Positions 40,837 through 59,620 of a stretch of 64,000 nt of DNA are shown here, piece by piece; within the stretch, counting starts at the first letter, position 1; every line of letters begins with the position of its first letter. Source of the DNA: a virus; IMG/VR virus record IMGVR_UViG_3300025684_000016, positions 1 to 64,000 of that record, one strand, 5' to 3'. The notes under the pieces are model-generated. The model was not told where the DNA came from. It did not search any database and was given only the letters and a program-made list of their open reading frames with translations. The position numbers were made by a program, and so were the translations under genes.

Positions 40837-42648
40837 TTAGACAGGTTCTAAACCTTCATCACGACCACCGCCACATTTATTTGTGGTTCCATAATTACCA
40901 TTTTTTTGGAAAAGTAATTTTTCACTACCTTCTGTTGATTCATCTGCGACCATATATGTACCATCAGACGAATATCTAAAGACTGTTGGTGTTCCAGACC
41001 ATATAGAATTAGGGTGTATTGTGTATGCACCACCACCACCATTTATAATCTCATTATCTGATAGTGCAAATGTTGATTTAACTATATTTTTCCCATCTGC
41101 ATTGGTGGTGAACCATGATGTGTTATAAGTTACATAAACTCTATTTTCTAAAATACCATCATTACCTTCATCACAATTCGCGTTGTTTGGTGCTGAAGTT
41201 GTGTTAGATAATAAAATGGCAGATATCTCTGTCGTCTCTGTTGTAGGACTTGGAGTTGGTTGTGGGGTTGGACTTGGTTCTTGTTCATATGTACAATTAC
41301 GATTTTCAGTACATGACCCTCCACTTGGTGGTCTTTCTACACCGGATGGGTCTATCACTGCCGCACCTCCACCAGACTGACCGAAATCAAACCATAGTGG
41401 TGTTGTTTGAGAACATACACCATATACCGATCCACTCACCCCTTGATATACTGCAAGAGTAGCCAAAAGATTTGAGAACGGTGTAAGTATTGCTGTTTCA
41501 CCACCTTGGAAGTAATCTAATCCCTGATTAGTTGTGTCGACGTTATTAGGAACAAATACAAAGTTACAGGTTAATGCACTAACCTCTGTTGTGGGACTTG
41601 GAGTTGGTGATGGGCTCGGAGAAGGAGATGGGCTTGGTGTCGGATTAGGTGATGGACAAATACCTCCAACACAATCTGAACCTATACTATAACTTAATTT
41701 AGCGTCCGACACCGTTATATTTTGACCACTACCACACACACTAAATGTTTCTTGAGTATAAGTCGTTCCTGTTTGAGGGACTCCCGAACAATCATCGTAA
41801 CCGTAATATCTTGCTCCGCTTGAGTTATGAGAGAACTCTATACAAACACAAGGTCCTTCAGTTGGTGTTGGTGTAGGAGTTGCAATGTTAATATCAACAT
41901 CAAAGTCACAATTTTCTGTAACTGTTGGTGTAGGTGATGGAGATGGTGTTGGACTACTTGAAGGTGTTGGACTTGGTGTTGGACTTGGTGTTGGAGTATT
42001 ATCACAAACACCATCAGTACATGTTCCGTAAACGCCGTAAGTTACTTTTTCAGCAACTGATATTATACTTTGTGCACATACGTGAAATGTTATTTCCTCC
42101 ATTGGTGGAGTGTCAGACGTTGCATTTACTGTCACACCACTACAATCAACATATGAGTAACTGAAATAACCCTGACGATTACTATTAATTTCGAAACATT
42201 GACACGCCACCTCATCCGTAGGTGTTGGAGTAGGGCTTGGTGATGGGGTTGGACTTGGTGATGGACTATATTCCACAAAATTAACCGTGAAATTACAATC
42301 AGTCGTTGGTGTTGCGGTTGGTGTTGATGTTGGGCTTGGTGTGGCAACAGGACTAAATGGTGGACAGTTTTCACAATCAATATTAATTAACTTAACTTGA
42401 AAACCACCTTGTCTTTTAGGTAATTCAGATGGTGGTGGTGTAACGTAAAAATCACAGTGTACCAAAAAGATATATAAAGGACCTTCATATGTACCAACAT
42501 CAAATGTGTGTGGTAAACTATGTGATCCAATTGATTGTGCACTTACAGGTATTATATATGGATCACCGTTGTAGGTTGTACCCGTATATATTGTGAATTC
42601 ATCACATACACCATTTTCATATAGATTATTTACCGTTATAAGACTCAT
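40837..42648 (-). CDS. Modular virion accessory protein with PS/PT linkers, CxCxE domains and an NCDFDVD motif
   Basis: Several PS/PT tracts separating small Cys-rich domains; one exact [15 protein letters not shown]. Confidence 0.75.
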   Translation of the reverse strand: MSLITVNNLYENGVCDEFTIYTGTTYNGDPYIIPVSAQSIGSHSLPHTFDVGTYEGPLYIFLVHCDFYVTPPPSELPKRQGGFQVKLINIDCENCPPFSPVATPSPTSTPTATPTTDCNFTVNFVEYSPSPSPTPSPSPTPTPTDEVACQCFEINSNRQGYFSYSYVDCSGVTVNATSDTPPMEEITFHVCAQSIISVAEKVTYGVYGTCTDGVCDNTPTPSPTPSPTPSSSPTPSPSPTPTVTENCDFDVDINIATPTPTPTEGPCVCIEFSHNSSGARYYGYDDCSGVPQTGTTYTQETFSVCGSGQNITVSDAKLSYSIGSDCVGGICPSPNPTPSPSPSPSPSPTPSPTTEVSALTCNFVFVPNNVDTTNQGLDYFQGGETAILTPFSNLLATLAVYQGVSGSVYGVCSQTTPLWFDFGQSGGGAAVIDPSGVERPPSGGSCTENRNCTYEQEPSPTPQPTPSPTTETTEISAILLSNTTSAPNNANCDEGNDGILENRVYVTYNTSWFTTNADGKNIVKSTFALSDNEIINGGGGAYTIHPNSIWSGTPTVFRYSSDGTYMVADESTEGSEKLLFQKNGNYGTTNKCGGGRDEGLEPV

Positions 42649-42765: not shown

Positions 42766-43563
42766 TTACTCACCACAATGTAAAAAGTCATCACAACCAG
42801 GAACGATAGGTATACGTGATATGTATCCATTTTCACTTCCAGGAGGTGCAGTAAATGTGGTTGATATTACAGTTGCACAATACGTCGCACCACCACATCC
42901 ACTATTACTGGTCCCCCTAAACTGTACAACATCACCTATAGAATATCCCGGATCGGACACGACAGTAAGGTTACCATTCTCACAATACACAATCTTAGGT
43001 ACATGATAGTCCTGTGAGTCGTTACATCTCTCAAGTCTATAGTAAGTCTCAAGTTCGGTTGTTGGACTTGGTGTCGCACTTGGTATTGGTGTAGGTGTGT
43101 AAGTTGGCATTTGAGTTACATTTGGTGTTGCACTTGGATTAGGTGTTGCATTAGGTGTTGCATTTGGTGTTGCACTTGGATTAGGTGTTGGTTGTGGTGT
43201 TGCACCATTTGTTGGTAGTGGTGTTGCATCAGGTGTTGGTTGAGGTGTTGCATCAGGAGTTGGTTGAGGTGTTGCACCATTTGTTGGTTGAGGTGTTGCA
43301 CTTAATGTTAAGGGATATTCCACAATATTTGTTGGACAATCTTTTATCATAGTTGCATTATTATTATAAAAAATAACACTTGTTGCACTATCAGGTACCG
43401 TTATTAGTACACCTCCCTGAACTTGAGCTAATGTTAAATTAGTTGCCTGATTACTTGTTCCATAGAGGAGTGCTTGGTTACCATTCGTTGATGACGTATG
43501 GTATATTGTATACGGACCATTGTTGGTTCCTGAAGTTAACGTTACTGTGAAATGTCTTGCCAT
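42766..43563 (-). CDS. Modular virion accessory protein (N-domain, ATPQP/ATPN linker, Cys-rich tip)
   Basis: N-terminus similar to that of 45461..51598; has its own TATTTAT and terminator. Confidence 0.75.
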   Translation of the reverse strand: MARHFTVTLTSGTNNGPYTIYHTSSTNGNQALLYGTSNQATNLTLAQVQGGVLITVPDSATSVIFYNNNATMIKDCPTNIVEYPLTLSATPQPTNGATPQPTPDATPQPTPDATPLPTNGATPQPTPNPSATPNATPNATPNPSATPNVTQMPTYTPTPIPSATPSPTTELETYYRLERCNDSQDYHVPKIVYCENGNLTVVSDPGYSIGDVVQFRGTSNSGCGGATYCATVISTTFTAPPGSENGYISRIPIVPGCDDFLHCGE

Positions 43564-43617: not shown

Positions 43618-44754
43618 TTAACAACTTGGTATACTATAACCTAAATTATTAATCGCCGTAATTATAAGTCCCATATAATATTGTGGACTACTCCCTGGTG
43701 TAACACCATAGGTATTATGCACTACAGATTTATCAGATAACCCATACACACCACTATAGTTACCTAAACCACCCTCAACCGCTTCCAATAGATTTTTAAA
43801 GTATAGATACTGACCTGTGGGTTGAGTTTGAACTTGAAAAATCTCACCAATAAGGTAATTGGTTGGATTATTATCAATGTTATTTCTTAAAGATGTTATG
43901 TCAGTATTAAAAGTACTGGTTCTGTTAGTGGTGTTGTTCCATCCAGAAGTAGAACCACCATGATATATTGAAGCCCCTTCGTCTTGGAATGATAAGTTTA
44001 TGACTTTAGTAATTGATGATGTAGTACCAGTCGTTGCTAAACAAGCGTAACTTCTTTCCCCGAAATTCAATGATGACATATTTAAAACTCTTACCCTACT
44101 ATCATATAATGCCGAATCATTGTTGTAAAACGGTAATAAACAGTTTTTAAGAATGGTAGATGCCATAGTATTTAATGGGGCTTCAGTGGTACCCATAGAA
44201 CCTGAATCATCAAAGAATATATTAATTTCAGTCTTGTCGTCTATGACCTCACCTGTTGGTGATGGGGTTGGACTTGGTGTTGCGTTTGGTGTTGCGTTTG
44301 GTGTTGCGTTTGGTGTTGATGCCAACGTTGGTTGTGGGGTTGGGGTTGGACATATTAATTGAAGATCTACCCCAAATTCAATCCTATCGTAACAATCAAA
44401 TGCCTTACTATCATGAATGTATATGTTATGAATAACATATCTACTCCTTAAATCATTCTCGTGAACATCAATATCATTTACGTTATCCTCCAACTTTATC
44501 CAATACTCAGTATCAAATTCTAATTCAGATACGACATTTTCACATGTAGTTCCCGATCCTGGTGGTGGAACAGTTGGGTCATCGTTAGTCATACATATCG
44601 GATTTGACATATAGTCTCTAACATTAGATGATGGCCACGCACCATTAACCTCAGGACCTTCAATTTTCTTGAAGTACCCGTAGGGTGATGTTCCAATACT
44701 TAAGTTAAACTTGTTTGGAGAAACAATATCATATAAACGTACAACTAATCCCAT
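43618..44754 (-). CDS. Modular virion accessory protein with vWA-like (DxSxS) C-terminal domain
   Basis: EINIFFDDSGSM; C-terminal ~205 aa paralogous to the C-terminus of 51644..59620. Confidence 0.75.
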   Translation of the reverse strand: MGLVVRLYDIVSPNKFNLSIGTSPYGYFKKIEGPEVNGAWPSSNVRDYMSNPICMTNDDPTVPPPGSGTTCENVVSELEFDTEYWIKLEDNVNDIDVHENDLRSRYVIHNIYIHDSKAFDCYDRIEFGVDLQLICPTPTPQPTLASTPNATPNATPNATPSPTPSPTGEVIDDKTEINIFFDDSGSMGTTEAPLNTMASTILKNCLLPFYNNDSALYDSRVRVLNMSSLNFGERSYACLATTGTTSSITKVINLSFQDEGASIYHGGSTSGWNNTTNRTSTFNTDITSLRNNIDNNPTNYLIGEIFQVQTQPTGQYLYFKNLLEAVEGGLGNYSGVYGLSDKSVVHNTYGVTPGSSPQYYMGLIITAINNLGYSIPSC

Positions 44755-45460: not shown

Positions 45461-48400
45461 CTATATTACACCACAATCAAAATTATTATCACATGGCGAA
45501 CCGTTAGATGAAATATCTGCAAACTCTGAAATGAATGAATCACCACTTGGACCATATTTAAACATATTACTTAGTGTTGGTTTACTACAGAAATAAAAAG
45601 TATTCACACCTCCATTCTCCATGGATAGTTGTGAATTTAAGTTTACTGAGGTTTCACCTGCCTCACAATCGTTGTTTATATAGTATAAGTCTTGGTTAGA
45701 AGCGTTGGTTAAATAACTACTCGGAACCGAAACTTCAATACAATTACATTTACTTACTCCCTCATCACCAAACGTACTTTGTATTGGTGAAGTTCCCACA
45801 GGACATCCATTTGCGTCTGTAACAACAACATAGTAATATCCTTCCACCAAGTTACTAAATGTTTGTGATGGGTTACCCGATGTTACACCTGTAATGGTTG
45901 CAACTAATGTTCCACCACCTACCGTGTATGGTGATGTTGTGTCATTGTAAAGTCTGTAAGTTTTATTCCATGTTCCACCTGACGATGTAACTACTATGTT
46001 ACCATTAGGTCCCACAGTAAATGATGAAATAGTTGCAGTACCCGCAGTTGGTTGTGTCACATTTATTATATATGCTTTTTCACATCCATCACCATCTTTA
46101 ATTGTAATTACATGGTTACCACTACTTAATGAGGAGTATGTTTTAGGGAATGTTGTACTATAAGTTCCTGAACCTATTTTAGAATTATATGTTCCTCCGT
46201 TTCCACCCGTTGGACTTGAGACTGTTATTTCACCATCACTACCTCCATTACAACTCACACTACTCATTACAAATGTTGCACTTGGGTCTGTCTTATTAAG
46301 TTGTGCACTTCCTGTTCGAACACAATCAGAAGTGTCTTTAACCCTTATTAAATATATTGCTTCACTTAAAGTGGAAAAAGTATTACTCGCTTGGTAACTA
46401 AATCCATTATTTAAAGAATATGTGTATGATCCACTACCACCACTTGCGTTAATTACTATTTTACCATCATTATCTCCACTACATGAAGGGTGTGTTAATG
46501 TGGTAGTAAAACTAACCTGTGTTGGTACCGTTATTGTTCTTGTATATGTGCTTGTACATCCACTACCATCTTTAATGTATATGGTATATGAACCAGCAAC
46601 TAAACTACTATATGTTTTAGGGAATGTAGTCGTATATGACCCACTACCCAATTTTACACTATATGTTCCACCATTTCCACCTGATGGACTACTAACAGAT
46701 ATTGATCCCGTACCACCATAACATGTAGGGTTTGAATGAGAAACTATTGCAGATACCGCCGATTTAGATAATGTTCTACTAAGACTTTTAGTACATCCAT
46801 TTTCATCTGTTGCAATTAAAGTGTATGTACCTTCCTCTAAATTTGTTTGGGAAAGATCCGTAATTGCCACACCATTTTGTGTGTATGTTTTTGTTCCTGT
46901 TCCACCACCAACAGTCCATGTAATTGATCCATCACTACCTCCAATACATGTGGGGTTGGAGAATGTACTACTAATGGTAATGGCAGTGGGTTCTGTTATT
47001 GTTTTTGAATATGATCGAACACACCCCTCACCATCTCTTACTTGTATTGTATAAGAAGTGGCACCTAAACTACTATATGTTTTAGGGAATGTCGTTGTCC
47101 ATGACCCAGTATCTAATCTAACACTATATGTTCCACCATTTCCACCTGATGGACTACTAACCACAAAAGATCCTGTAACTTGTTTATTACACAATGGATT
47201 GGTAGTTACTATAGTTGCCTGTGGGAGTGATTTAGATAACGAATAACTTTGAGTGTCTATACATTGATTGGCGTCTTTAACGTATGCAGTTCCACCACCA
47301 ATAGTTAAACCTGTAAACGTACCTGATGTGTAATAATTTACACCATTTATTGAATATAACTTACTTCCTGAACCACCTGTTGAACTAATAACAATCTGTC
47401 CGTCAGTAGACGATGTACATGTTGGATCTGTTACCACTACAGAAGCAACTAAGTTTGTAGGTTGGGTAACTGTTACAGTATATGATCTACTACATAGTTC
47501 TGAATCCCTGACTTGTATTGTATAATTACCCGCAGTTTTAGTACCGAATGTGACAGGTGTACTGAAATTAGTCCAATTACCACTTGAAAATTTAAATTGG
47601 TACTGTCCCCCATTACCACCTGTTATAGATGCCAATGTTATATCACCATCATTTCCACCGTAACAACTAACATCATTATTATATATTGATGCGGAAACAA
47701 TTGATTTGGTTAAAGTTCTTGTTGATGACGAAGTACAGTTACCACCATCTTTAACTTTTATTGAATACGTTCCAGTACCTAAACTATTAAAGACATTACT
47801 ACTCTGATAGTTTGTACCACCATCTTTAGAATATACTTTAGTACCTGAACCACCAGACGCTGACACTGTTATTGAACCGTCGGTATCGTCACTACATGTT
47901 GGATTAACAAATGTTGTTGTATGAGTTAGTGTTGTTGGTTCTGATATGGTTTGTGTGTATGTTTTTACACATCCTTCACCATCTTTAATGTATATGGTAT
48001 ATGTACCAGGTACTAATGATGTATATTCTTCAATAGTGTTATTTGGTAGGTCTATATAGGTACCTAATTTATTAATTTTTACCTGATATATTCCACCGTT
48101 TCCACCCGATGGATTTGCCACCGATATAGTACCATCACCAGCCCCATTACATGTGACATTTGTAAATGACCACGTTAATATAGGTGCTGATTTTGATAAT
48201 GTTAAACTACTTGATCCTGTTGTTGTACATAAATTACTATCTCTAACGTCTAATGTGTAATTTCCAGTTGTTAAACCTGTGAAGGTTCCCGAAGGACCCC
48301 ACTGAAAACCATCTTTAGTGTATTCATACGTACCACTACCTCCCGTTGCCGTTATAACTATCTCACCATCCGAACCGTCCCAACATGTTGGGTCAGTATG

Positions 48401-51400
48401 TGTTGATGTAAACGATACTTGAGTTGGTTCTGTTATTGTTACTGAGAATTCTCTTTCACAGAAACTCCCATCCTGTATTGTTATCGTGTATGTACCCGCA
48501 GATAAATTACTTATTGTACGAGTAGTCCCATCATCATCTTCAAATTCTCCATCATCAAATTTTATCTTATACGGACCACCATTACCACCACCAATTTGAG
48601 TTATTCTAATTTCACCCGAACTGAGTCCATTACATAATGTATTTGTTTTGGATAGTGATAAAGTTATTGCCGACTTAGTTAGTACTACCGTTCTTGAACT
48701 TGTACACCCATTTTCGTCAGTTGCAACTAAAGTGTAATTACGTTCATCCAACCCTGTTTGGGAAAGATCCGTAATTGCCACACCATTTAACGTATATGTT
48801 TTGGTTCCTGTTCCCCCACCAACGGTGAAAGTAATTGTACCATCAGAATCACCATCACATGTTGGATCTGTATGAGTATCGGATATGAATATTGCTGATG
48901 GTTTTGTAATTGTTTTACTTATAGTACCTATTTCACCATTACTATCTTTTATGTAAATTGTGTATGTCCCTGAATCGAGATTTGAAAATGTCGTTGATGT
49001 TTGGTAATTAGTACCGTTAATTGAATATGTATATGGTGAATCACCTCCCGTAGTTGAGGTAACCTCAATACTACCATCCCTTAAGTTGTTACATGTAATA
49101 TTGGTTACATTCGCAGTACCTGATACAGATATATTTGTTATTGATATGGTTATTTTCTTTTCATACCATAACCCTCCTTGATCTGTCGATCTTACTCTTA
49201 TTGTGTATGAATTCTTGGTTTCATAATCAAAAACTTCTTTGCTTTTTAAGGTTGTTCCGTCTATATAGAATGAACCATTGTTGGTATCTCCAAGACCACT
49301 TACTAATGTATATGTAAATGTATTTCCTGCGTCAGGGTCTGTTGTGGATAATGTTCCTACAGTGGACCCTGTTACCACATTCTCATCAATAGATGAATTA
49401 GATAATGATATGTTTGTTGGAGTTTCATTAACATTAGTTACATTAATAGTAAACGATTCTTCTCTATATAAACCACCTTGGTCTGTTGATCTTACTCTAA
49501 CTGAATAAGTGTTCTTAACTTCATAGTTGAATACTTCACTACTTTGAATATTATTACCACTTATGTTAAATGAACTATTATTAGTGTCACCCACACCACT
49601 TACTAATGTATATGTAAATGTATTTCCTGCGTCAGGGTCCGTGGTTGAGAATTGACCAACCGTAGTACCCGTAGAACTATTTTCAGGAATATTATTATCT
49701 GATAAAATTATATCTGTAGGTGCTTCGTTTGCGTTGGTGATATTAATTGTTACTGATCTTTCGTGTGTTAAACCACCTGAATCTGTTGCTTTGACTCTTA
49801 TTGTATACGAGTTTTTAACTTCGTAGTTAAACACCTCGTTAGATGTCAGAGTACCATTACTATTCAAACTAAACGAATCGTTGTTGGTATCTCCAAGACC
49901 ACTTACCAATTCAAAAGTATGTGTATCGCCCGCATCAACATCGGTGGCGGTGAATGTAGTCACTGTTGTTCCTGTCGATTGATTTTCTTGAAATGACACT
50001 GTTGATGGTGTTATGTTAGAAGGGGTTTCGTTAAGATCTGTAATCAAAATCGTAAATATACCTATGTAGGTTAATCCCCCCGAATCAGTAGTTTTTACTC
50101 TTATAGAATAACTGTTCTTACCTTCATAGTTATAAACTTCTTTACTTTTTAGAACACCACCACTTGTTAATGTAAATGAATCATTATTAGTATCTCCTAA
50201 ACCACTAACAAGTTCATAAGAATGACTATCTCCCGAATCAACATCCGTACTACTGAAAGTACCTATTGTTGTTCCTGTAGATTGATTTTCCGCAATACTA
50301 TTACTTGATAAGGATAAATTTGTTGGTGATTCATTAACGTCAAGTACTGAAATTGTAAATGTATCCGTATAAGTGTTATTACCACTATCCGTAACCGTCA
50401 CTTCAATACTATAAGAGTTTTTAACCTCATAATTAAAAACTATTGCATTTTTGAGTACACCCGTACTTGATAAGGCGAACGCCGAATTATTATTACCACT
50501 ACCCGTTAGTGCGTATGTGAATGTTTCGTTACTATCAACATCTAACCCTGAAAAAATACCAATTGTTGTCCCCGTTGATGTGTTTTCACTTTGTGAATTA
50601 TTACTTAAGGTTAAACCGTATGGTGTTTCATTAACATCAACTATGTCTACCGTAAATTCTCTTGTATTACTTAAACCACCATCATCAGTTGCTTTAACAT
50701 ATAATGTGTATAAACTTTTTACCTCGTGATTAAAAACTTGTGCATTAGATAAAACCTCATTAGTTAACGTAAATGAATTATTGTCGGGGTAATTTGCACT
50801 ATCTGTAAATTCCCACGTAATGGTTCCACCCTCAGTATCGTCAGCAACTAAACTACCAATAGTAGTTCCTGTTGCAGTATTCTCTGTTTGACTAAAATTT
50901 GGTAATCTAATCCTTGGTGATGTATTTGTTGTTACGTCTACATCAAAGTCACAATTAATTGTTGGTGACGGAGATGGACTCGGTGTAGGGGTTGGTAATG
51001 CCGTTGGTCTTGGAGTCGCGCTAAACGTCGGAGACGGAGATGGACTCGGTGATGGACTCGGTGACGGAGACGGACTTGGGCTCGGTGATGGGGATGGACT
51101 TGGGCTTGGTGTAGGTGATGGACTCGGTGTAGGAGTTGGGGTCGCAATATCAATGTCAACATCGAAATCACAATTCGGAGTTGGAGTTGGACTTGGGCTC
51201 GGGCTTGGTGACGGAGACGGACTCGGTGACGGAGATGGACTCGGTGACGGAGACGGTGTAGGTGTAGGGTTAGGGGTTGAACTCGGTGATGGTGACGGTG
51301 TAGGTGATGCCGTTGGATTTGGTGTTGCACTCGGTGTTGCCGTTGGTAACGGAGTTGGTAATAGAATGGTGTCCTCAATTAGACACGAGTCGTTATATAA

Positions 51401-51598
51401 TAATACCGACACCGCACTATCAGGTATCTCAACCTTTACACCTGGTGACGTAATTAAATCATTATATGTAACACCAGTTGCTGGTAATGTGGTACTAACT
51501 CTTGTGGCAATATTTGACGGACCCACCAAATCATAGTAGATTGTGTAATCACTATGTGATGTCCCTGATGTAATTAATATGTTAAATATTCTTGCCAT
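45461..51598 (-). CDS. Giant adhesin-like virion protein: N-domain, PS/PT linker, 6 cadherin-like domains, ~13 SprB-like repeats, Cys-rich tip
   Basis: ENxxTG..DxD..(F/Y)(N/D)(Y/H)E..(D/N)xNE cadherin pattern x6 at ~100-aa period; xxxC.G..DG.I..GG..Y..L..G.Y...(K)D..GC repeats; no signal peptide. Confidence 0.85.
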
Positions 51599-51643: not shown

Positions 51644-54600
51644 CTAACAACTTGGAATTGTATAACCTAAATTATTCATTGCGTTTACTATTAGATCCAT
51701 ATAATATTGTGGTGTACTTCCTGCAATCGTATCTTGAACACAACTAACTTCAGTTTTATCACTTAATCCCGCAGTTCCCGAATAATAACCCGTTCCACTA
51801 AACAACGCATTCATAAATGCTTGATATTGTGGGTATGCATCGTTTCCACCACTTAAAGTGTCCACTTGGAATATTATTCCTCTATGTGACGTTGAGCTGG
51901 TTGCGTTGGTCAAATTAGTTCTTAAGAGTGTAATATCACTATTACCCACTGTACTACCATTTGTCCAACCACTAACCGTTGGTGATTCTGCTTCGTATGA
52001 GTTACTCTCATCTGCGAATGCTAAATTCACCACATTCCTTGACGGATCTGATGGTTGAGTTGCAATCCAACTAATCGCCCTTTCATTACTAATACTTGTT
52101 ATTGTTACTCTTGAATTATATAAGTTAACATCATTATCATAGAATGGTAATAAACAATTCTGTAAAAGAGTACTCCTCATTGTATTAAGTGGACTTAGTG
52201 TTGAGTTCATTGAACCTGAACTATCAAAGAATATATTTATCTCCGTATCTGTACTAACCACTATCTCTTCCTGAATAACCTCAGTCGCTTGAACCTCAAA
52301 AGTACAATCACATAATATGTGTACATATTCTAAATCAAATAACGTCTGATTCCATTCGGCAACAACAAACACCGCATTATTATTAGAGTCAATAAATCTA
52401 ATTCCTGTGTCGTATAAAATATTTGTACCATGAGGTGTTAAATTACCTAATGAGTGATCCACACTACTAACTTGGGTACCGACAGGTGTTACGTGTTGTC
52501 CAACACAACTTGTGTTAGATCCACCAGAATAACCACGTACATAAACTAAACATGATGTGGAATCATACCACCATTCTTCACCGTCAGTATCAACACCAGG
52601 TGTCTCAGCACAATACCCACCTAAATCATATATTCCAGCTCCACTAACTCCTGTTCCTGTGGACACGAATAAACCACTAAAGATTTCAGTTCCACAATTT
52701 GGTGGACAACCTACCGATGTAGGACTTGGACTCGGACTCGGTGATGGACTCGGAGAAGGAGATGGACTTGGTGTAGGACTCGGACTCGGAGATGGACTTG
52801 GTGTAGGACTCGCAGTTGGGTTTGGTGTAGCACTTGGGCTTGGTGTTGGTGTAGGAGTTGCAATATCTATGTCAACATCAAAATCACAATTCGGAGTTGC
52901 CGAAGGTGATGGAGACGGTGATGGTGATGGTGTAGGACTTGCAGTCACACTTGGTGTTGGTGATGGACTTGGGCTTGGTGATGGTGTTGGTGATGGTGAC
53001 GGACTTGGTGTAGGACTCGCAGTTGCATCAGGTGTCACACTTGGTGATGGTGATGGACTTGCAGTTGGATTTGGTGTCGAACTTGGACTCGGCGTAGGAG
53101 TTGGTGTAGCAATATCTATATCAACATCGAAATCACAATTCGGAGTTGCCGATGGTGATGGGGTTGGAGTTGAACTCGCGGTCGTACTTGGTGATGGTGA
53201 CGGACTTGGTGTAGGACTCGCAGTTGTACTTGGACTTGGTGACGGTGTAGGTGATGGACTTGGCGTAGGAGTTGGGGTAGCAATATCTATATCAACATCG
53301 AAATCACAATTAACCGTTGGTGACGGTGAAGGAGATGGTGATGGTGACGGACTTGGTGATGGGCTCGGAGATGGGCTTGGCGTCGGACTCGCAGTCACAC
53401 TTGGTGATGGAGATGGACTCGGACTTGGTGATGGTGTAGGACTCGCACTCGGCATAGGAGTTGGAGTTGCAATGTTTATATCAACATCGAAATCACAATT
53501 TATTGTTGGTGTAGGAGATGTCGACGGACTCGGTGATGGTGTAGGAAATTGTGTAGCATCAGGTGTTGCCGGTGGTGTTGCAGTTGGGTCAGGTGTTGGT
53601 GCTGGTGTTGCCGAAGGTGATGGGGTTGCAGTTGGGGTAGCAATATCTATATCTACGTCAAAGTCACAATTCGGGGTTACCGACGGACTTGGGCTTGGTG
53701 ATGGTGATGGTGTAGGACTCGCAGTTGTACTCGGACTCGGTGATGGAGATGGAGATGGGGTTGGACTTGCAGTTGTACTCGGACTTGGTGATGGTGTAGG
53801 ACTCGCACTCGGCATAGGAGTTGGAGTTGCAATGTTTATATCAACATCGAAATCACAATTCGGGGTTGCTGATGGTGATGGACTTGGTGATGGACTTGGC
53901 GTCGGACTTGCCGTTACACTCGGACTCGGTGATGGAGAAGGAGATGGTGTAGGACTTGGGCTTGGTGTAGGACTACTTGAAGGTGCAGGTGTTGGTGTCG
54001 CAATGTTTATATCAACATCAAAGTCACAATTAGCCGTAGCCGATGGACTTGGGCTTGGTGATGGTGATGGTGATGGTGTAGGACTCGGGCTTGGTGTAGG
54101 AGTTGGGGTAGCAATATCTATATCAACATCGAAATCACAATTAACCGTTGGTGTAGGACTTGCCGTTACACTTGGACTTGGTGATGGAGATGGGCTCGGA
54201 CTTGGGCTCGGTGATGGTGTCGGACTACTTGAAGGTGCGGGTGTTGGAGTCGCAATGTTTATATCAACATCAAAGTCACAATTTTCTGTAACTGTTGGTG
54301 TAGGTGATGGAGATGGTGTTGGTGTAGGAGTTGCAATATCTATGTCAACATCAAAATCACAATTAGCGGTAACTGTTGGTGTAGGTGATGCAGACGGTGA
54401 AGGAGTTGGAGTTGCAATGTTAATATCAACATCGAAATCACAATTTTCTGTAACTGTTGGTGTAGGACTCGGGCTTGGCGTAGGAGTTGGAGTTGCAATA
54501 TCAACGTCCACGTCGAAATCACAATTTTCTGTAACTGTTGGAGTTGGAGATGGGCTTGGCGTAGGAGTTGGTGTAGCAATATCAACGTCCACGTCGAAAT

Positions 54601-57600
54601 CACAATTTATCGTTGGTGTAGGACTTGCAGTCACACTTGGTGAAGGGGTCGGAGTCGCAATGTTTATATCAACATCAAAGTCACAATTTTCTGTAACTGT
54701 TGGAGTTGGAGATGGTGTTGGAGTCGCAGTTGGTCCCGCAATATCTATATCCACGTCGAAATCACAGTTCGGTATATCTATATCCACGTCGAAATCACAG
54801 TTCGGTGTTGCCGAAGGTGATGGTGACGGTGTAGGACTTGCAGTCACACTTGGTGAAGGACTTGGTGATGGTGTCGGACTACTTGAAGGTGATGGTGATG
54901 GTGTCGGACTTGCAGTCACACTTGGTGAAGGACTTGGTGATGGGCTCGGTGTAGGAGATGGGGTTGGACTTGCGGTCACACTTGGTGTTGGTGCCGGTGT
55001 TGCAGTTGGTGGTTGTGTTGGTCCTGGTGTGGGTGTAGGTATGTCATTACAATCCTCAGTATAAATTGGTCGATTTAAATCTTCAATTGAAGGTATAACA
55101 GCACAATCTAATTGGTCTTGGAAATATTGTTGAGCACTTAATGATAAATCCTCAAATGTTTGTTGTGGATAGTGAACTAAAATACAGTCGTCATCATCTC
55201 CGTTATATAAAATAACCTGTGGATATGCCACTTCAGACACTTGTGTCATTGTTAAGTGATAAAATAATTCACGTTCACAATATTCTAAATCTAAACTCGT
55301 AACTTCAATTGGGAAACCAAATTCATTAATAAGATAATCACCTTTTATGAAGTAATCCTTATCATATGTACAACATGGGTCAACACCTTGTTCTAAAGGT
55401 CTAACAAATAAATCTTCAGGGTATTTTTCTGTAAATTCCCACAAACCACTCACTTTAGTTAATACCCTCACCTTTGTATTTGGTAGGATTCTAAAACGAT
55501 CATTAATGACGTTCATTTTAGTAGTCCCCAAACAATCAATATTATCTACAGTAACTTCAGTGTAGTTCTGACCAAATGAGAATCCATTTAAAACTGAGTC
55601 TCTAAAATCTTCAGAACCAAACGGACATGACAAATATTCACCCGACAACAATCTATCACCATCATTCACTTCTTGAGCCTTGATTCGTACTATATTATTA
55701 CCATTAATTAATGTCTGTATATCTTCCCATGTTGTGGTTGATGATATAACCACCGCATTGTCTACAATTTTTAAAACTGTACTATCTTGTTTTATTCCAT
55801 AATCAAATGTTGGTCGATACTGTACCTTAGGATGTATAGTATATCCAAGGTAATTATCACAATATGTTATACCACTTAGAGTCTCTATTGCCACATTACC
55901 ATTTTCTGGTAATTCACCAGGTAAAAAAGATTCTACAGAATATTCAACATAATGACTTTTTGGTTCTGTAACCGTATCATTAATTGGATCCCATTCTAAT
56001 TTTTGTTGTAACCCCTCAATTCTTACTTTTTGATCACAGTTTGCTGCGTCGGTGATTGATATATCAATGACATCATGTTCTCTTACATTTTTTACTATAA
56101 ATGTACAACCCGACACATAATCAACCACATAAGATGGTGGTTCTGAAATACCCTCATTGTAATCACCAAGACAATTAATGAATATGTTAACCGGCCAATC
56201 AGTATTGTATGGTGGACATGTATCACACACATCACCATTATCAACAGTATCTTCATTTCCAAATGTTATACCTGATACCTCAAAATAAACGTCTGACACT
56301 AACACACATTCGTCAGGATCTTCAGGTAATGTATACATTGTACCATCACCATATACCTTAACTTTAGGGTCACATTTTGTTGTTCCTGTTAGGTAAACCG
56401 AATCAAAATAGAAATCAAACGTACTCGGATCTAAACAATCAAAATCAACAGGTGTATATGTCACATAAGGTGATCCCGTTGCACTATATAATTGTAAATT
56501 ATAAACGTAGGGTACAATTGCAATTTTTTGAATACCATCCGTATCTGTAAAAATTCTATAATCTAATAAAGGTGCGTATTCATAATCATATGTTTCAGTC
56601 ACTTTCGCAACACCACTAACATCATCAGTTGTATCACTTAGTTCGTTTGTGAATGCCGTAGATATTGATGTATTACCACTTACTTTAAATTCTTCCCATC
56701 CAGCATGGTTGTTAATTAACCCACCATGACCAGTGTATTTTGTTTTCTTATAATATGTCTTATTGATTTGATTATCAATAATATCTTTTATTTCGTCAAT
56801 CCAAAGACATTCTAAAATCTCCAATTGTGGTTCTAAATAACATTTAAAATCACATAATAGTGGTAAGTGTACCGTTTTATCAAATTGGGTACCTCCACTT
56901 GTCACTGATTCTTGTGTTAATGTTGTTATCCCTGAAAATTCAAGAAACTCAACAGTTTGAGCACAATTATCATTATCAAAGTATACATTTTCAATGTCAG
57001 TACATTCAGATGTTATTGTGTATGGATCGAATAACCCCGCATGATTATGATTAACAAGTATTTCATCACATGTTGAACCAGTTACTGTTTGTGTCTCACC
57101 ACTAATGACAATATCAGTATCACCAGTAAATGTCAACCCATTAAAGTCAATATGAAGTGTGTAAGTCACACCACTTACAACTGTAAGTCCCCTGAAATTA
57201 TCATGGTCACCTAAAATTGTTTCTAAATCTTCTTCAATTACATCCTCAAACTTAGGAAAAAGGTTTTGTGTAAACTCATTTGGTAAACATGGTTTCTCAT
57301 ATTCAAACTTAGATCTTCCAATTCTACCGTTTTCAATGATATTACCACCAGTCCATAGTGTTGTGGCAGGAACAAATTGTTCAATCACTTGTGTCCAATA
57401 AGGACTCATTCGGTTTATAAATTCACTAACAGTAGGTAAACTATATGGATTGGACACCTTTGATAGGTAACCCTCATATATGTCTTCTAACTGTATATAA
57501 TTCTTTTTATATCGAATTATGTGTGTGTTACGTATTTGTTCGTTTAAAACGTGTTCAGTGTACTCAGCAAACGTGAATCCTGTCTGTGGTTCTAACGTTG

Positions 57601-59620
57601 CACGACCAAACGACACTTTTAATTCTCTACTTTGTCTGTATATGTCATTATCAACACCTTGTGACGATGAAAGATAGATTTGAATATTTTTTCTGTTAAG
57701 GATTCTTGAATCTTCATCTTCTAAAACTTCTGTCTTATCATTGTCAACCGTGTTATGTAATTCATAACCGTAATCTAAACCCGAAAACTGTCTATATAGG
57801 TCAAAATAGTCCTCACCATAGGTGAAATCTTTGTTTTTAGTCTTTATAACTTTAGGGTTCAAAGTCAAGTTTGAATTCTCAGTATCTAACTCAGTTGATG
57901 ATCTGTGGTCTAATGTTATATCATACCATCCAGCACCTTTTTGGAAGAATGTGTCTTGTTTTTCACTTTCTATACCCTTTATATCCCCATATTGTGATTT
58001 ACCCGACACAAGACTTACAGGGTATTCACCCTCACTATAAAGTGTGGAACCTGTGGTAGTTACACTATTGTAACTAAAACCTGTTGTTGATAATGATCCC
58101 ACTTTAAAGGTTTTATCACCTTGAATAAGGTCATAAACATCACTATCAATGTCACTCGTTGTCTTTTTTACTTGATCGTAACGGTAAACATATTCGTTAA
58201 TATTAATCAACGGTTCAGGTGCACCAATAAATCTTAAAAAGAATTCAATTGCTTTCCTTGTACCTTTTGATTTGTAAATGTGTGAAAGGTTGATGACAAG
58301 TCTTCTGTAAAACTCAGTCTCTGCTTCCACCATATTCATTCCAACACCAACACCATCGTACTGACTGTCAACTCTTGTGTAAAGTGAATCCTGTAGATTC
58401 TTTTCGTCAAATAGGTTTAAAGTGTCTAAACCAAGTGTGTTGGATAAGTTTTTTAAAAGTACGTCAGGTAGGTTATTAATACGATCATAACTCACATTTC
58501 TCATGTAAGCGATATTATCAATAAACTTCTTAACCTGATCAAAACTATGACCAAGTAACTGAGTTGCCGAGTCAAATCTTCTATCCTCAGTATCAAATTC
58601 GTATAATGATGCGGTCGTTAAAAATCTTGAAACTACATTCGATTTGTAATTATCAATACGTTCACCGAGTATACTTAACTCTTCAACATAATTTATGTAT
58701 GCACTTCCCGATATCTTTAAATTCCATTTATCCCTATATAGTGGCCACGAAATCTCATTAGTTTTTAGTTCTGTTTTTGAACCATCGAAACTATCTTCAG
58801 GTGCTCTGAACTTTGCGGTGTATTTTATTTTAGATTCACGATTTAATAAAACCGATTCTAAGTCATCTAACCCTTCAAAAAATTCTTCAACAACACTATT
58901 GTTCGGTCTTATTAAAAAACTATCGTCATATGTTGATGCCCCACCAAATGGAGACCCTTTTACCGTTAGACTTACTAACCCACTTAAATTAACCTCAGTA
59001 TAACTTATAACCTGATATGAAATCGAATTTACTTCTAATTCATATCTCTTAAAAGAATCGTAAAAATTCTTAATAGTGTTCGTTGTCTCAGGTAATGTAT
59101 TACTCTTTGGTTTTTCAAGAATAACATCTAACGGATTGAATATTTTACTATTTTCAATCTGAAATGAAGTTACATTGGTTTTCTTATTATATGTAGAATT
59201 TAACGCGGTAAATAACGTAGATGCCGTTGGGGTTTCTTTATCAATATAAATTCCAGCTGGAAACTTACCAATGATTCTTGATACGGATACCTGTAATCTT
59301 TGTTTTAGTGAACCAAATAAAGATTTACCACCATCTTCATTAGATTTTCTAAAGGTTACCTTATCCTTTCTTCTTTTAGTTGTAATTGTAGAGACACCAC
59401 TTTCAATTGGTTCCTCTTCTTTAATGTCCTCAAATGTGAGGTATTCAGAAAATGGTTTAGATTGGAATGATTTTTTATCCCTTTGGGGAATACTTTTATC
59501 CAATGCAAAGTTCGCAGAGGTCAGCTGACTTGTACCATCGGTAATTTGATTACCGACCAAGTTGTCATTAAAGGTTTCCCTCCCACTCGCCGCTTGACTT
59601 GGAACTTTTCTTTTCGCCAT
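51644..59620 (-). CDS. Baseplate wedge-like protein with mucin-like stalk and vWA-like tip
   Basis: [32 protein letters not shown] (P2 gpI/T4 gp7-like KGT motif); ~775-aa PS/PT region with 16 NCDFDVD motifs; C-terminal FFDSSGSM domain. Confidence 0.75.
52717..55040 (-). repeat. Coding low-complexity Pro/Ser/Thr repeat with 16 interspersed NCDFDVD(I/V)(D/N)I units
   Basis: 16 copies counted in the protein and again as STSKSQ in the antisense frame. Confidence 0.95.

Follow-up and report, generated by a model that had tools for sequence, protein, structure and literature searches.

What is the role of a ten-residue peptide that recurs sixteen times, almost unchanged, in a protein region otherwise dominated by proline, serine and threonine? 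The question is raised by a giant protein of 2658 amino acids (aa) encoded in the baseplate region of IMG/VR virus record IMGVR_UViG_3300025684_000016, of which positions 1 to 64,000 (the window) were analyzed. The peptide, NCDFDVD(I/V)(D/N)I, is here called the bead, and the region that carries it the stalk. We conclude that the bead is a genuine module under strong selection that has not been described before, and that it follows a conserved architectural rule, namely a spacing between beads that widens along the stalk.

Architecture of the giant protein and its stalk

The gene and its parts, with the bead copies located by a motif scan, are as follows.

51644..59620, minus strand: gene for the giant baseplate-region protein (P0001, 2658 aa), from the list of open reading frames (ORFs) and their translations, downstream of gp25-like and gp6-like wedge genes
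55043..59620, minus strand: N-terminal body, aa 1-1526, conserved, Cys-rich and non-repetitive; homologues are 38-88% identical over 100% of this part and have differing C-terminal payloads
52718..55042, minus strand: Pro/Ser/Thr stalk of 775 aa (aa 1527-2301) with all 16 bead copies, recognized by its composition, limits and tandem-repeat structure
54740..54802, minus strand: beads 1 and 2 (aa 1607-1616 and 1618-1627), with one Pro between them
54659-54688, 54578-54607, 54497-54526, 54416-54445, 54335-54364 and 54254-54283, minus strand: beads 3-8, with a constant period of 27 aa
54113-54142, 54002-54031, 53831-53860, 53642-53671, 53471-53500, 53282-53311, 53111-53140 and 52862-52891, minus strand: beads 9-16, with linkers of 27-73 aa
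51647..52717, minus strand: C-terminal payload, aa 2302-2658, a Cys-containing domain ending in DCTFEVQA (52289-52309), followed by a domain with FFDSSGSM

The giant protein contains exactly 16 matches to NCDFDVD[IV][DN]I, located between aa 1607 and 2253 (window 52862-54802). An earlier inspection of this DNA by eye (the original prediction) had described 16 copies in a Pro/Ser/Thr stalk with linkers of about 1 to about 70 aa; its stalk limits were nearly identical to ours, and the measured linkers are 1, 17 (six times), 37, 27, 47, 53, 47, 53, 47 and 73 aa long, a range of 1-73 aa. Outside the beads, the linkers consist of 38% P, 27% S and 21% T (86% Pro/Ser/Thr), and every one of the 16 cysteines in the stalk is a bead cysteine. 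The GC content reaches 0.46 in the stalk region. Beads 3-8 were also recovered by Tandem Repeats Finder, with a period of 81 nucleotides (nt), 6.5 copies and 76% matches. A perfect 33-nt tandem duplication at 54741-54806 creates the pair of beads with the 1-aa linker; no other very recent expansion can be seen in the array. The duplication is probably recent, and this linker is probably not a designed feature. An ORF of 835 aa on the plus strand (52557..55064) is a shadow of the repeat composition and not a gene.

Selection on the peptide and its conservation

Among the 16 copies in the giant gene, the proportion of differences at synonymous sites (pS) was 0.73, which means that these sites are nearly randomized, as compared to only 0.029 at non-synonymous sites (pN), and the pN/pS ratio was thus about 0.04. 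When 118 copies from this genome and from loci L001-L010 were pooled, every synonymously variable codon was found to vary, with the residues C, D, F, D and D fixed. Since the synonymous divergence is heavy and the protein is nearly unchanged, selection acts on the peptide and not on the DNA, in agreement with the earlier claim that the peptide is nearly invariant despite synonymous changes. The conserved unit exceeds ten residues and reads T-x-N-C-D-F-D-[VI]-D-[IV]-[DN]-I-A-T-P-T-P.

More than 170 metagenomic homologues matched the first 1500 aa of the giant protein, down to an identity of 38%, and no match to the body was obtained in isolate phages using tblastn. The exact peptide is present in 1-15 copies in close relatives, or 1 to 16 if this phage is included, and a homologue with a body that is 88% identical to that of the giant protein (P0002) has 5 copies. 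Because the copy number varies to this extent among close relatives, each bead is an independent, additive unit.

Distant lineages have versions such as CDFEVTAFV, CEFVIDTVAV, CDFDYVITI, CDFGIDVNVV, CAFDFNVVI and CDFTVQVNY. Alignment on the Cys yielded 199 distinct Cys-led islands from 78 homologues of the giant protein. In addition to the Cys, which is always present, F was found at position +2 in 83% of the islands, hydrophobic residues at +4, +6 and +8 in 98, 86 and 80%, respectively, and acidic residues at +1, +3 and +5 in about 55-65%, with T at -3 and T-P-T at +10 to +12. Almost all hydrophobic islands in the Pro/Thr (PT) linkers carry exactly one Cys. Laid out as a strand, the bead places C, F, V, I and I on one face and N, D, D, D and D on the other. 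This pattern is the signature expected of an amphipathic beta-strand with an essential cysteine. The original prediction of a probable beta-strand with alternating hydrophobic residues was thus upheld across the 199 variants, whereas the acidic character was confirmed only in part, the acidic face not being universal. A lack of conservation in relatives had been named as a result that would speak against the earlier interpretation; instead, the motif is clearly conserved across the 78 homologues. Because variants such as CDFEVTAFV and CEFVIDTVAV exist, Ca2+ binding by the four Asp residues cannot be the core function of the bead.

Many homologues of the giant protein have a PT stalk with beads. 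Others have no stalk and carry the payload joined directly, and the stalk is thus an optional device for reach and presentation. The C-termini differ between homologues, and the family thus consists of a conserved body with swappable adhesin-like tips. Precomputed Pfam labels on the C-termini of the homologues include discoidin, BspA-type leucine-rich repeats, DUF285, a beta-propeller DUF, Fib_succ_major, cadherin plus SprB, and LamG, and swapping of payloads between lineages was seen in P0015, P0017, P0021, P0054, P0065, P0082 and P0101-P0106.

An array with these properties could also act on the host directly. The beads may form a tandem beta-zipper, in which multivalent low-affinity strands are added at the edges of sheets in a host surface protein with repeats, such as the SprB-like or cadherin-like adhesins of Flavobacteriaceae, and the stalk would then be a capture tentacle. 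Fibronectin-binding repeats of Gram-positive adhesins are disordered, multivalent and form beta-strands, features that are shared with the array. The plastic copy number is what tuning of avidity would give, and Flavobacteriaceae are likely hosts, as suggested by a contig from a metagenome-assembled genome (MAG) with the same gene set and by wedge homologues in Flavobacterium phages. However, receptor-binding elements usually diversify fast between strains, yet the peptide is nearly invariant within the clade while the payloads are swapped, and the payloads are therefore the more probable determinants of specificity. A beta-zipper would also leave the invariant unpaired Cys without a reason, and we consider it improbable.

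The spacing between beads widens towards the C-terminus

The distance between beads was analyzed in arrays with at least five copies. It widens from the N- to the C-terminus in 44 of 44 such arrays, which are related and hence do not represent 44 independent trials. Spearman's rho was above 0.5 in 38 of the arrays, with a mean of 0.76, and was 0.92 for the giant gene studied here. The widening was retained in all 18 arrays with linkers free of hidden islands and in lineages with different bead sequences, and was also present in P0122, a ten-bead orthologue of the 603-aa protein encoded in the window. The absolute spacings vary by lineage (19 to 51, 27 to 83, 29 to 75) with a constant trend, and the repeat periods range from 11 to 83 aa in this array and from 17 to 130 aa in relatives. 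The spacing gradient is thus a new regularity and a conserved architectural rule.

A neutral gradient, in which new copies arise at the base and linkers lengthen with age, was rejected by what is a weak test: proximal copies are no more alike than distal copies, with DNA identities of 0.80 and 0.83, respectively. These numbers also bear on the possibility that the beads are passive relics of domain-terminal strands without a binding role, copied together with linker cassettes through gene conversion and slippage and merely interrupting a low-complexity linker. Conversion and slippage are indeed active. A 62-nt stretch with linker and the start of a bead at 41891-41952 in the gene for the 603-aa protein is identical to 54261-54322 in the giant gene, a match that indicates recent gene conversion between the stalks of different genes, and the 33-nt duplication described above provides the second example. 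Module boundaries also often begin or end with Cys-led strands. Passive relics are nevertheless difficult to reconcile with a pN/pS of about 0.04 at nearly saturated synonymous divergence, with the retention of the Cys and of the hydrophobic alternation where the motif has otherwise changed, and with the conserved spacing gradient, and the identities of 0.80 versus 0.83 speak against a simple scheme in which new copies are added at the base and linkers grow with age. We regard this explanation as highly improbable.

Structure predictions and database searches

A single-sequence AlphaFold prediction of aa 1600-1800, a segment with eight beads and 17-aa linkers, gave a regular stack with two strands per unit, at a predicted local distance difference test (pLDDT) score of 56 and a predicted template modelling (pTM) score of 0.49. 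The top rows from Foldseek for this model were beta-solenoids and functional amyloids, namely ice-binding proteins, left-handed beta-helices, FapC and bactofilin, all with E >1. The solenoid-like stack is taken as a low-confidence lead only. The whole 603-aa protein was modelled with an alignment. Here, the N-terminal domain (N-domain; aa 1-90) had pLDDT scores mostly of 62-81 by blocks of ten residues and the two Cys modules of about 70 aa mostly had scores from the high 60s to the low 90s, with the beads (aa 118-127 and 244-253) disordered and unattached. Foldseek gave no match at E <0.001 for either of the two models. The Cys-rich modules of the 603-aa protein (40840-42648; aa 146-218 and 264-334) each start with a C-x-C strand, with a pLDDT of up to 92, and have no significant structural match in the PDB.

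The disorder of single copies is consistent with the claim of the original prediction that the peptide is too short to fold alone. Its two suggestions for how structure is gained fared differently: stacking with other copies was obtained for the tight eight-copy run, albeit only at low confidence, whereas completion of a partner domain found no support in cis, since neither copy in the 603-aa protein docks on the N-domain or on the Cys modules.

For the stalk, the N-terminal body and the C-terminal domain, nothing was retrieved from Pfam, PHROGs, PDB sequences or the ESM Atlas. No Pfam family was found on the stalk, the 603-aa protein or P0122, and relaxing the Pfam threshold to E up to 5 yielded nothing of relevance. 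A phmmer search of the peptide against the PDB gave low-complexity matches only. No paper was retrieved in a full-text literature search for CDFDVD, and nothing relevant was found in the literature on donor strands in phage baseplates and on Flavobacterium phage baseplate structures. Given that Pfam, PHROGs, PDB sequences and the searchable literature were all without a match, we conclude that the module is undescribed and matches no described protein module.

Three specific identities were rejected. By eye, the bead resembles the FxVxIxDVNExP ends of cadherin repeats, but a hidden Markov model of 5/6 of the cadherin-like repeats, run with filters off, scored it at 0 bits or less and did not place it on the G strand, and thus gave no support to a G-strand relic. 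Inspection showed neither an N-glycosylation sequon nor the D(S/T)(A/I/L/V/M/T) motif of Bacteroidota O-glycosylation in the bead. Intein-like Asn-Cys cleavage was dismissed, the residue before the Cys being variable across lineages (N, D, V, I, T, Y).

A proposed role of the beads as stickers on Pro/Thr spacers

The reading that we tentatively favour, with a confidence just short of even, is that the beads are self-associating sticker strands on Pro/Thr spacers. For the pairing partner, the disulfides, the role of cations and the mechanical function of the beads, we infer the following scheme. A lone bead would be unfolded and would become structured only when its hydrophobic face (C, F, V, I, I) pairs with other copies. 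These copies might be located on symmetry-related chains of the same protein in the baseplate, which taken by itself is somewhat unlikely, or within the same chain, which is decidedly unlikely. The invariant single Cys, the acidic face and the marine habitat suggest how pairs could be locked: disulfides between the Cys residues would form once the virion is in oxidizing seawater, and bridging of the Asp face by Ca2+ or Mg2+ may aid the locking in acidic variants. The widening spacing would set a gradient from a tight, stiff part near the baseplate to a loose, far-reaching part near the adhesin, and may tune the stiffness, the mesh or a hidden length to be released on binding of the tip to the host.

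Several points weigh against self-association. The N-terminal body is non-fibrous and may be present as a monomer in each wedge. The sole stacked model is the single-sequence prediction of low confidence (pLDDT 56, pTM 0.49). Odd copy numbers are frequent, which makes an obligatory pairing of Cys residues by disulfides within the chain unlikely. The lineage-specific bead variants that are common to the giant protein and the product of the next gene (L038, L074) are as compatible with a shared partner as with gene conversion. Several lineages have lost the acidic face. Finally, identical stickers on different proteins would risk cross-tangling.

Phage fibres are regarded as folded trimeric rods. 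In the widespread group of uncultured marine phages described here, which probably infect Flavobacteriaceae, the baseplate is linked to adhesins via very long mucin-like strings, punctuated by a minimal single-Cys strand under strong selection. The conserved spacing gradient of these stalks amounts to a concrete geometric rule that can be tested. Should the beads prove to be assembly elements, they would count among the smallest connectors between proteins in nature, possibly switched on by oxidation and Ca2+, and would be attractive as tags in protein engineering. They would also explain the hairy or tentacled baseplates of large uncultured phages, the reach and valency of which would be altered by repeat expansion.

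The N-domain as a candidate partner

When jackhmmer was started from residues 1-85 of the 2045-aa protein, encoded next to the giant gene, it identified an N-domain of about 85 aa that was found only at residues 1-85 of neighbours of the giant gene.

45461-51598 and 42766-43563 in the window, and loci L002, L004, L005, L008, L009, L010, L038, L070, L074, L075, L084, L085 and L091: N-domain proteins (jackhmmer)

The domain always ends in a single-Cys strand located directly ahead of the PT linker, and this terminal strand is bead-like (NCSFDVTYSV) in L070 and L085. The main rival to self-association is a plug-and-socket scaffold, in which the bead is a donor or edge strand that docks on the N-terminal domain of the downstream proteins of 2045, 265, 177, 494, 603 and 378 aa. 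The giant protein would then be a scaffoldin-like carrier of many adhesin modules, and branches would arise from proteins that have a socket as well as plugs. Given the single-Cys and sometimes bead-like end strand of the N-domain, a Cys-Cys lock between domain and bead is conceivable. Motif variants in the giant protein are matched by those in the next gene, and the combination of PT linkers, many repeated sites and several cargo genes resembles cellulosome scaffoldins. On the other hand, AlphaFold folded the N-domain and the Cys modules of the 603-aa protein without the motif and left the copies disordered, although docking in cis is sterically possible. N-domain proteins are also encoded in loci with no bead ORF within 25 kb (L084) or with only one (L070, L085), which shows that attachment of the N-domain does not require an array. 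Any protein bearing one socket and two plugs would polymerize in an uncontrolled manner, the stoichiometry of sixteen plugs versus about six socket genes is not obvious, and the N- to C-terminal spacing gradient is not predicted. On balance, we consider docking of this kind unlikely.

The self-association of beads could extend beyond the single stalk. Stalks may join in seawater by strand pairing and disulfides, between beads and perhaps between beads and N-domains, into a net or canopy that surrounds the tail tip and holds dozens of adhesin modules in a mesh widening outward. We hold this to be quite unlikely; if true, it would represent a supramolecular host-capture organ of a kind undescribed for any phage, built from a 10-residue assembly element.

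Comparison with known systems

The donor strands of chaperone-usher and type V pili resemble the bead in that a short strand with alternating hydrophobic residues and no fold of its own could complete or extend the sheet of another subunit. Hydrophobic residues occupy positions 0, +2, +4, +6 and +8 in 80-100% of the 199 bead variants, and several of the phage proteins hold a small N-terminal beta domain plus a strand. In contrast to the pilus strands, the bead is repeated up to 16 times per chain in long PT linkers and has an invariant Cys that is not part of pilus donor strands. With regard to an acceptor, the N-domain and the Cys modules of the 603-aa protein fold at pLDDT scores of 70-90 without the motif, and no docking in cis was seen with AlphaFold. 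Of the 23 proteins from the window and the loci that were scanned with Pfam or PHROGs, none appeared to be a chaperone or usher, a scan that did not extend to a search of the whole genome.

Cellulosome scaffoldins are similar in architecture: a single large anchoring protein bears many repeated sites spaced by Pro/Thr linkers, and neighbouring genes share an N-terminal module with varied payloads. The repeated unit is, however, 10 aa long as compared to about 150 aa for a cohesin, and no cohesin or dockerin family of Pfam was found on the stalk, the 603-aa protein, P0122 or the proteins of 177, 265, 378 and 494 aa.

In the Pro/Thr/Ser regions of mucins with CysD domains and in plant extensins, Pro/Ser/Thr spacers are broken by short hydrophobic cross-linking elements with Cys or Tyr. 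The stalk likewise has extended Pro/Ser/Thr spacers with Cys-bearing hydrophobic elements at intervals. The differences are that CysD is a multi-Cys domain of about 110 aa, that extensins are cross-linked via Tyr, and that both are glycosylated, secreted eukaryotic proteins, whereas the phage bead is a single-Cys 10-mer in a virion protein assembled in the cytoplasm.

The beta-roll of RTX proteins and beta-solenoids are also composed of short, repeated, stacking strands with acidic and alternating hydrophobic residues, possibly folding only outside the cell. Unlike RTX repeats, the bead has no Gly and no GGxGxD turn, the pattern GGxGxDxUx is absent, and PT linkers of 1-73 aa separate the units. 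The coil length is not fixed, as it would be in a canonical beta-solenoid, and the segment with a 27-aa period stacks at a pLDDT of 56 and a pTM of 0.49. The bead thus lacks the defining features of cohesin-dockerin pairs, RTX repeats and cadherin strands. By analogy, its mode of action would come closest to that of pilus connectors, which act through strands, or to the sticker-spacer cross-linking seen in mucins and extensins. On the chemical side, designed (Phe-Asp)n peptides, in which hydrophobic residues alternate with Asp and are bounded by Pro, self-assemble into beta-sheets and bind calcium (PMC9078708). Unlike the bead, these peptides are synthetic, free in solution and without Cys (PMC9078708), and the likeness is a chemical one that is silent on the behaviour of the phage peptide.

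Bead copies and related domains in neighbouring genes

A six-frame scan of the window identified the peptide outside the giant gene only in the genes for the 2045-aa and 603-aa proteins.

51146..51175, minus strand: bead in a PT linker of the 2045-aa cadherin/SprB-repeat protein (motif scan)
50933..50956, minus strand: truncated copy NCDFDVDV in the 2045-aa protein, continuous with the first cadherin-like domain (motif scan)
41884..41913, minus strand: bead in the 603-aa protein (motif scan)
42280..42300, minus strand: non-acidic variant DCNFTVNF(VEY), about 20 aa past the N-domain of the 603-aa protein (motif scan)

These are the two copies in the 2045-aa protein and the one in the 603-aa protein that had been noted beforehand, together with looser variants, for which the scan returned DCNFTVNF (42280-42300) and DCTFEVQA (52289-52309). 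The position of the DCNFTVNF variant is kept in 18 of 20 homologues. In related genomes, the same trio of genes bears beads. The 2045-aa protein contains six cadherin-like repeats and about ten SprB repeats detected by Pfam.

Over its last approximately 210 aa (51647-52285), the giant protein shares 51% identity with the C-terminus of the 378-aa ORF (43621-44235). Both C-termini have FFDxSGSM after a hydrophobic strand, which in appearance is similar to a metal ion-dependent adhesion site. No Pfam or PDB sequence match was obtained for the C-terminal domain, and an assignment to vWA is thus without support.

The phage and its habitat

The window corresponds to the first 64 kb of a linear viral contig of 74.8 kb, with coding mostly on the minus strand. 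Upstream of the giant gene are the gp25-like and gp6-like baseplate wedge genes, a ribonucleotide reductase and a DnaB-like helicase. The nearest homologues of the wedge proteins, at 25-29% identity, are from an uncultured phage record, Flavobacterium myophages and a Microcystis phage. The same gene set, including the whole bead-bearing trio, is located on a 248-kb contig (CBFHJJ010000001.1; L009/L010) that has been binned with a Flavobacteriaceae MAG, and near-identical DNA is present in marine and seawater metagenomes from at least 14 studies, 2011 to 2024. Based on the wedge genes and their homologues, the MAG contig and the seawater matches, we conclude that the source is a fragment of a large uncultured marine myovirus. 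The host is probably a member of the Flavobacteriaceae. The binning of contig CBFHJJ010000001.1 may be a hint of the host, through a prophage or an infected cell, or else an artefact.

Seawater contigs that cover 52300-55400 (runs X2, X3, X4 and X7) are interrupted at either end of the stalk (near 52717 and 55026) and also within it. Because short-read contigs break inside the array and joints in repeats are unreliable, polymorphism of array length in natural populations cannot be read from them. Elsewhere within the window are genes for a 3018-aa tail-fibre protein and a tape-measure-like protein.

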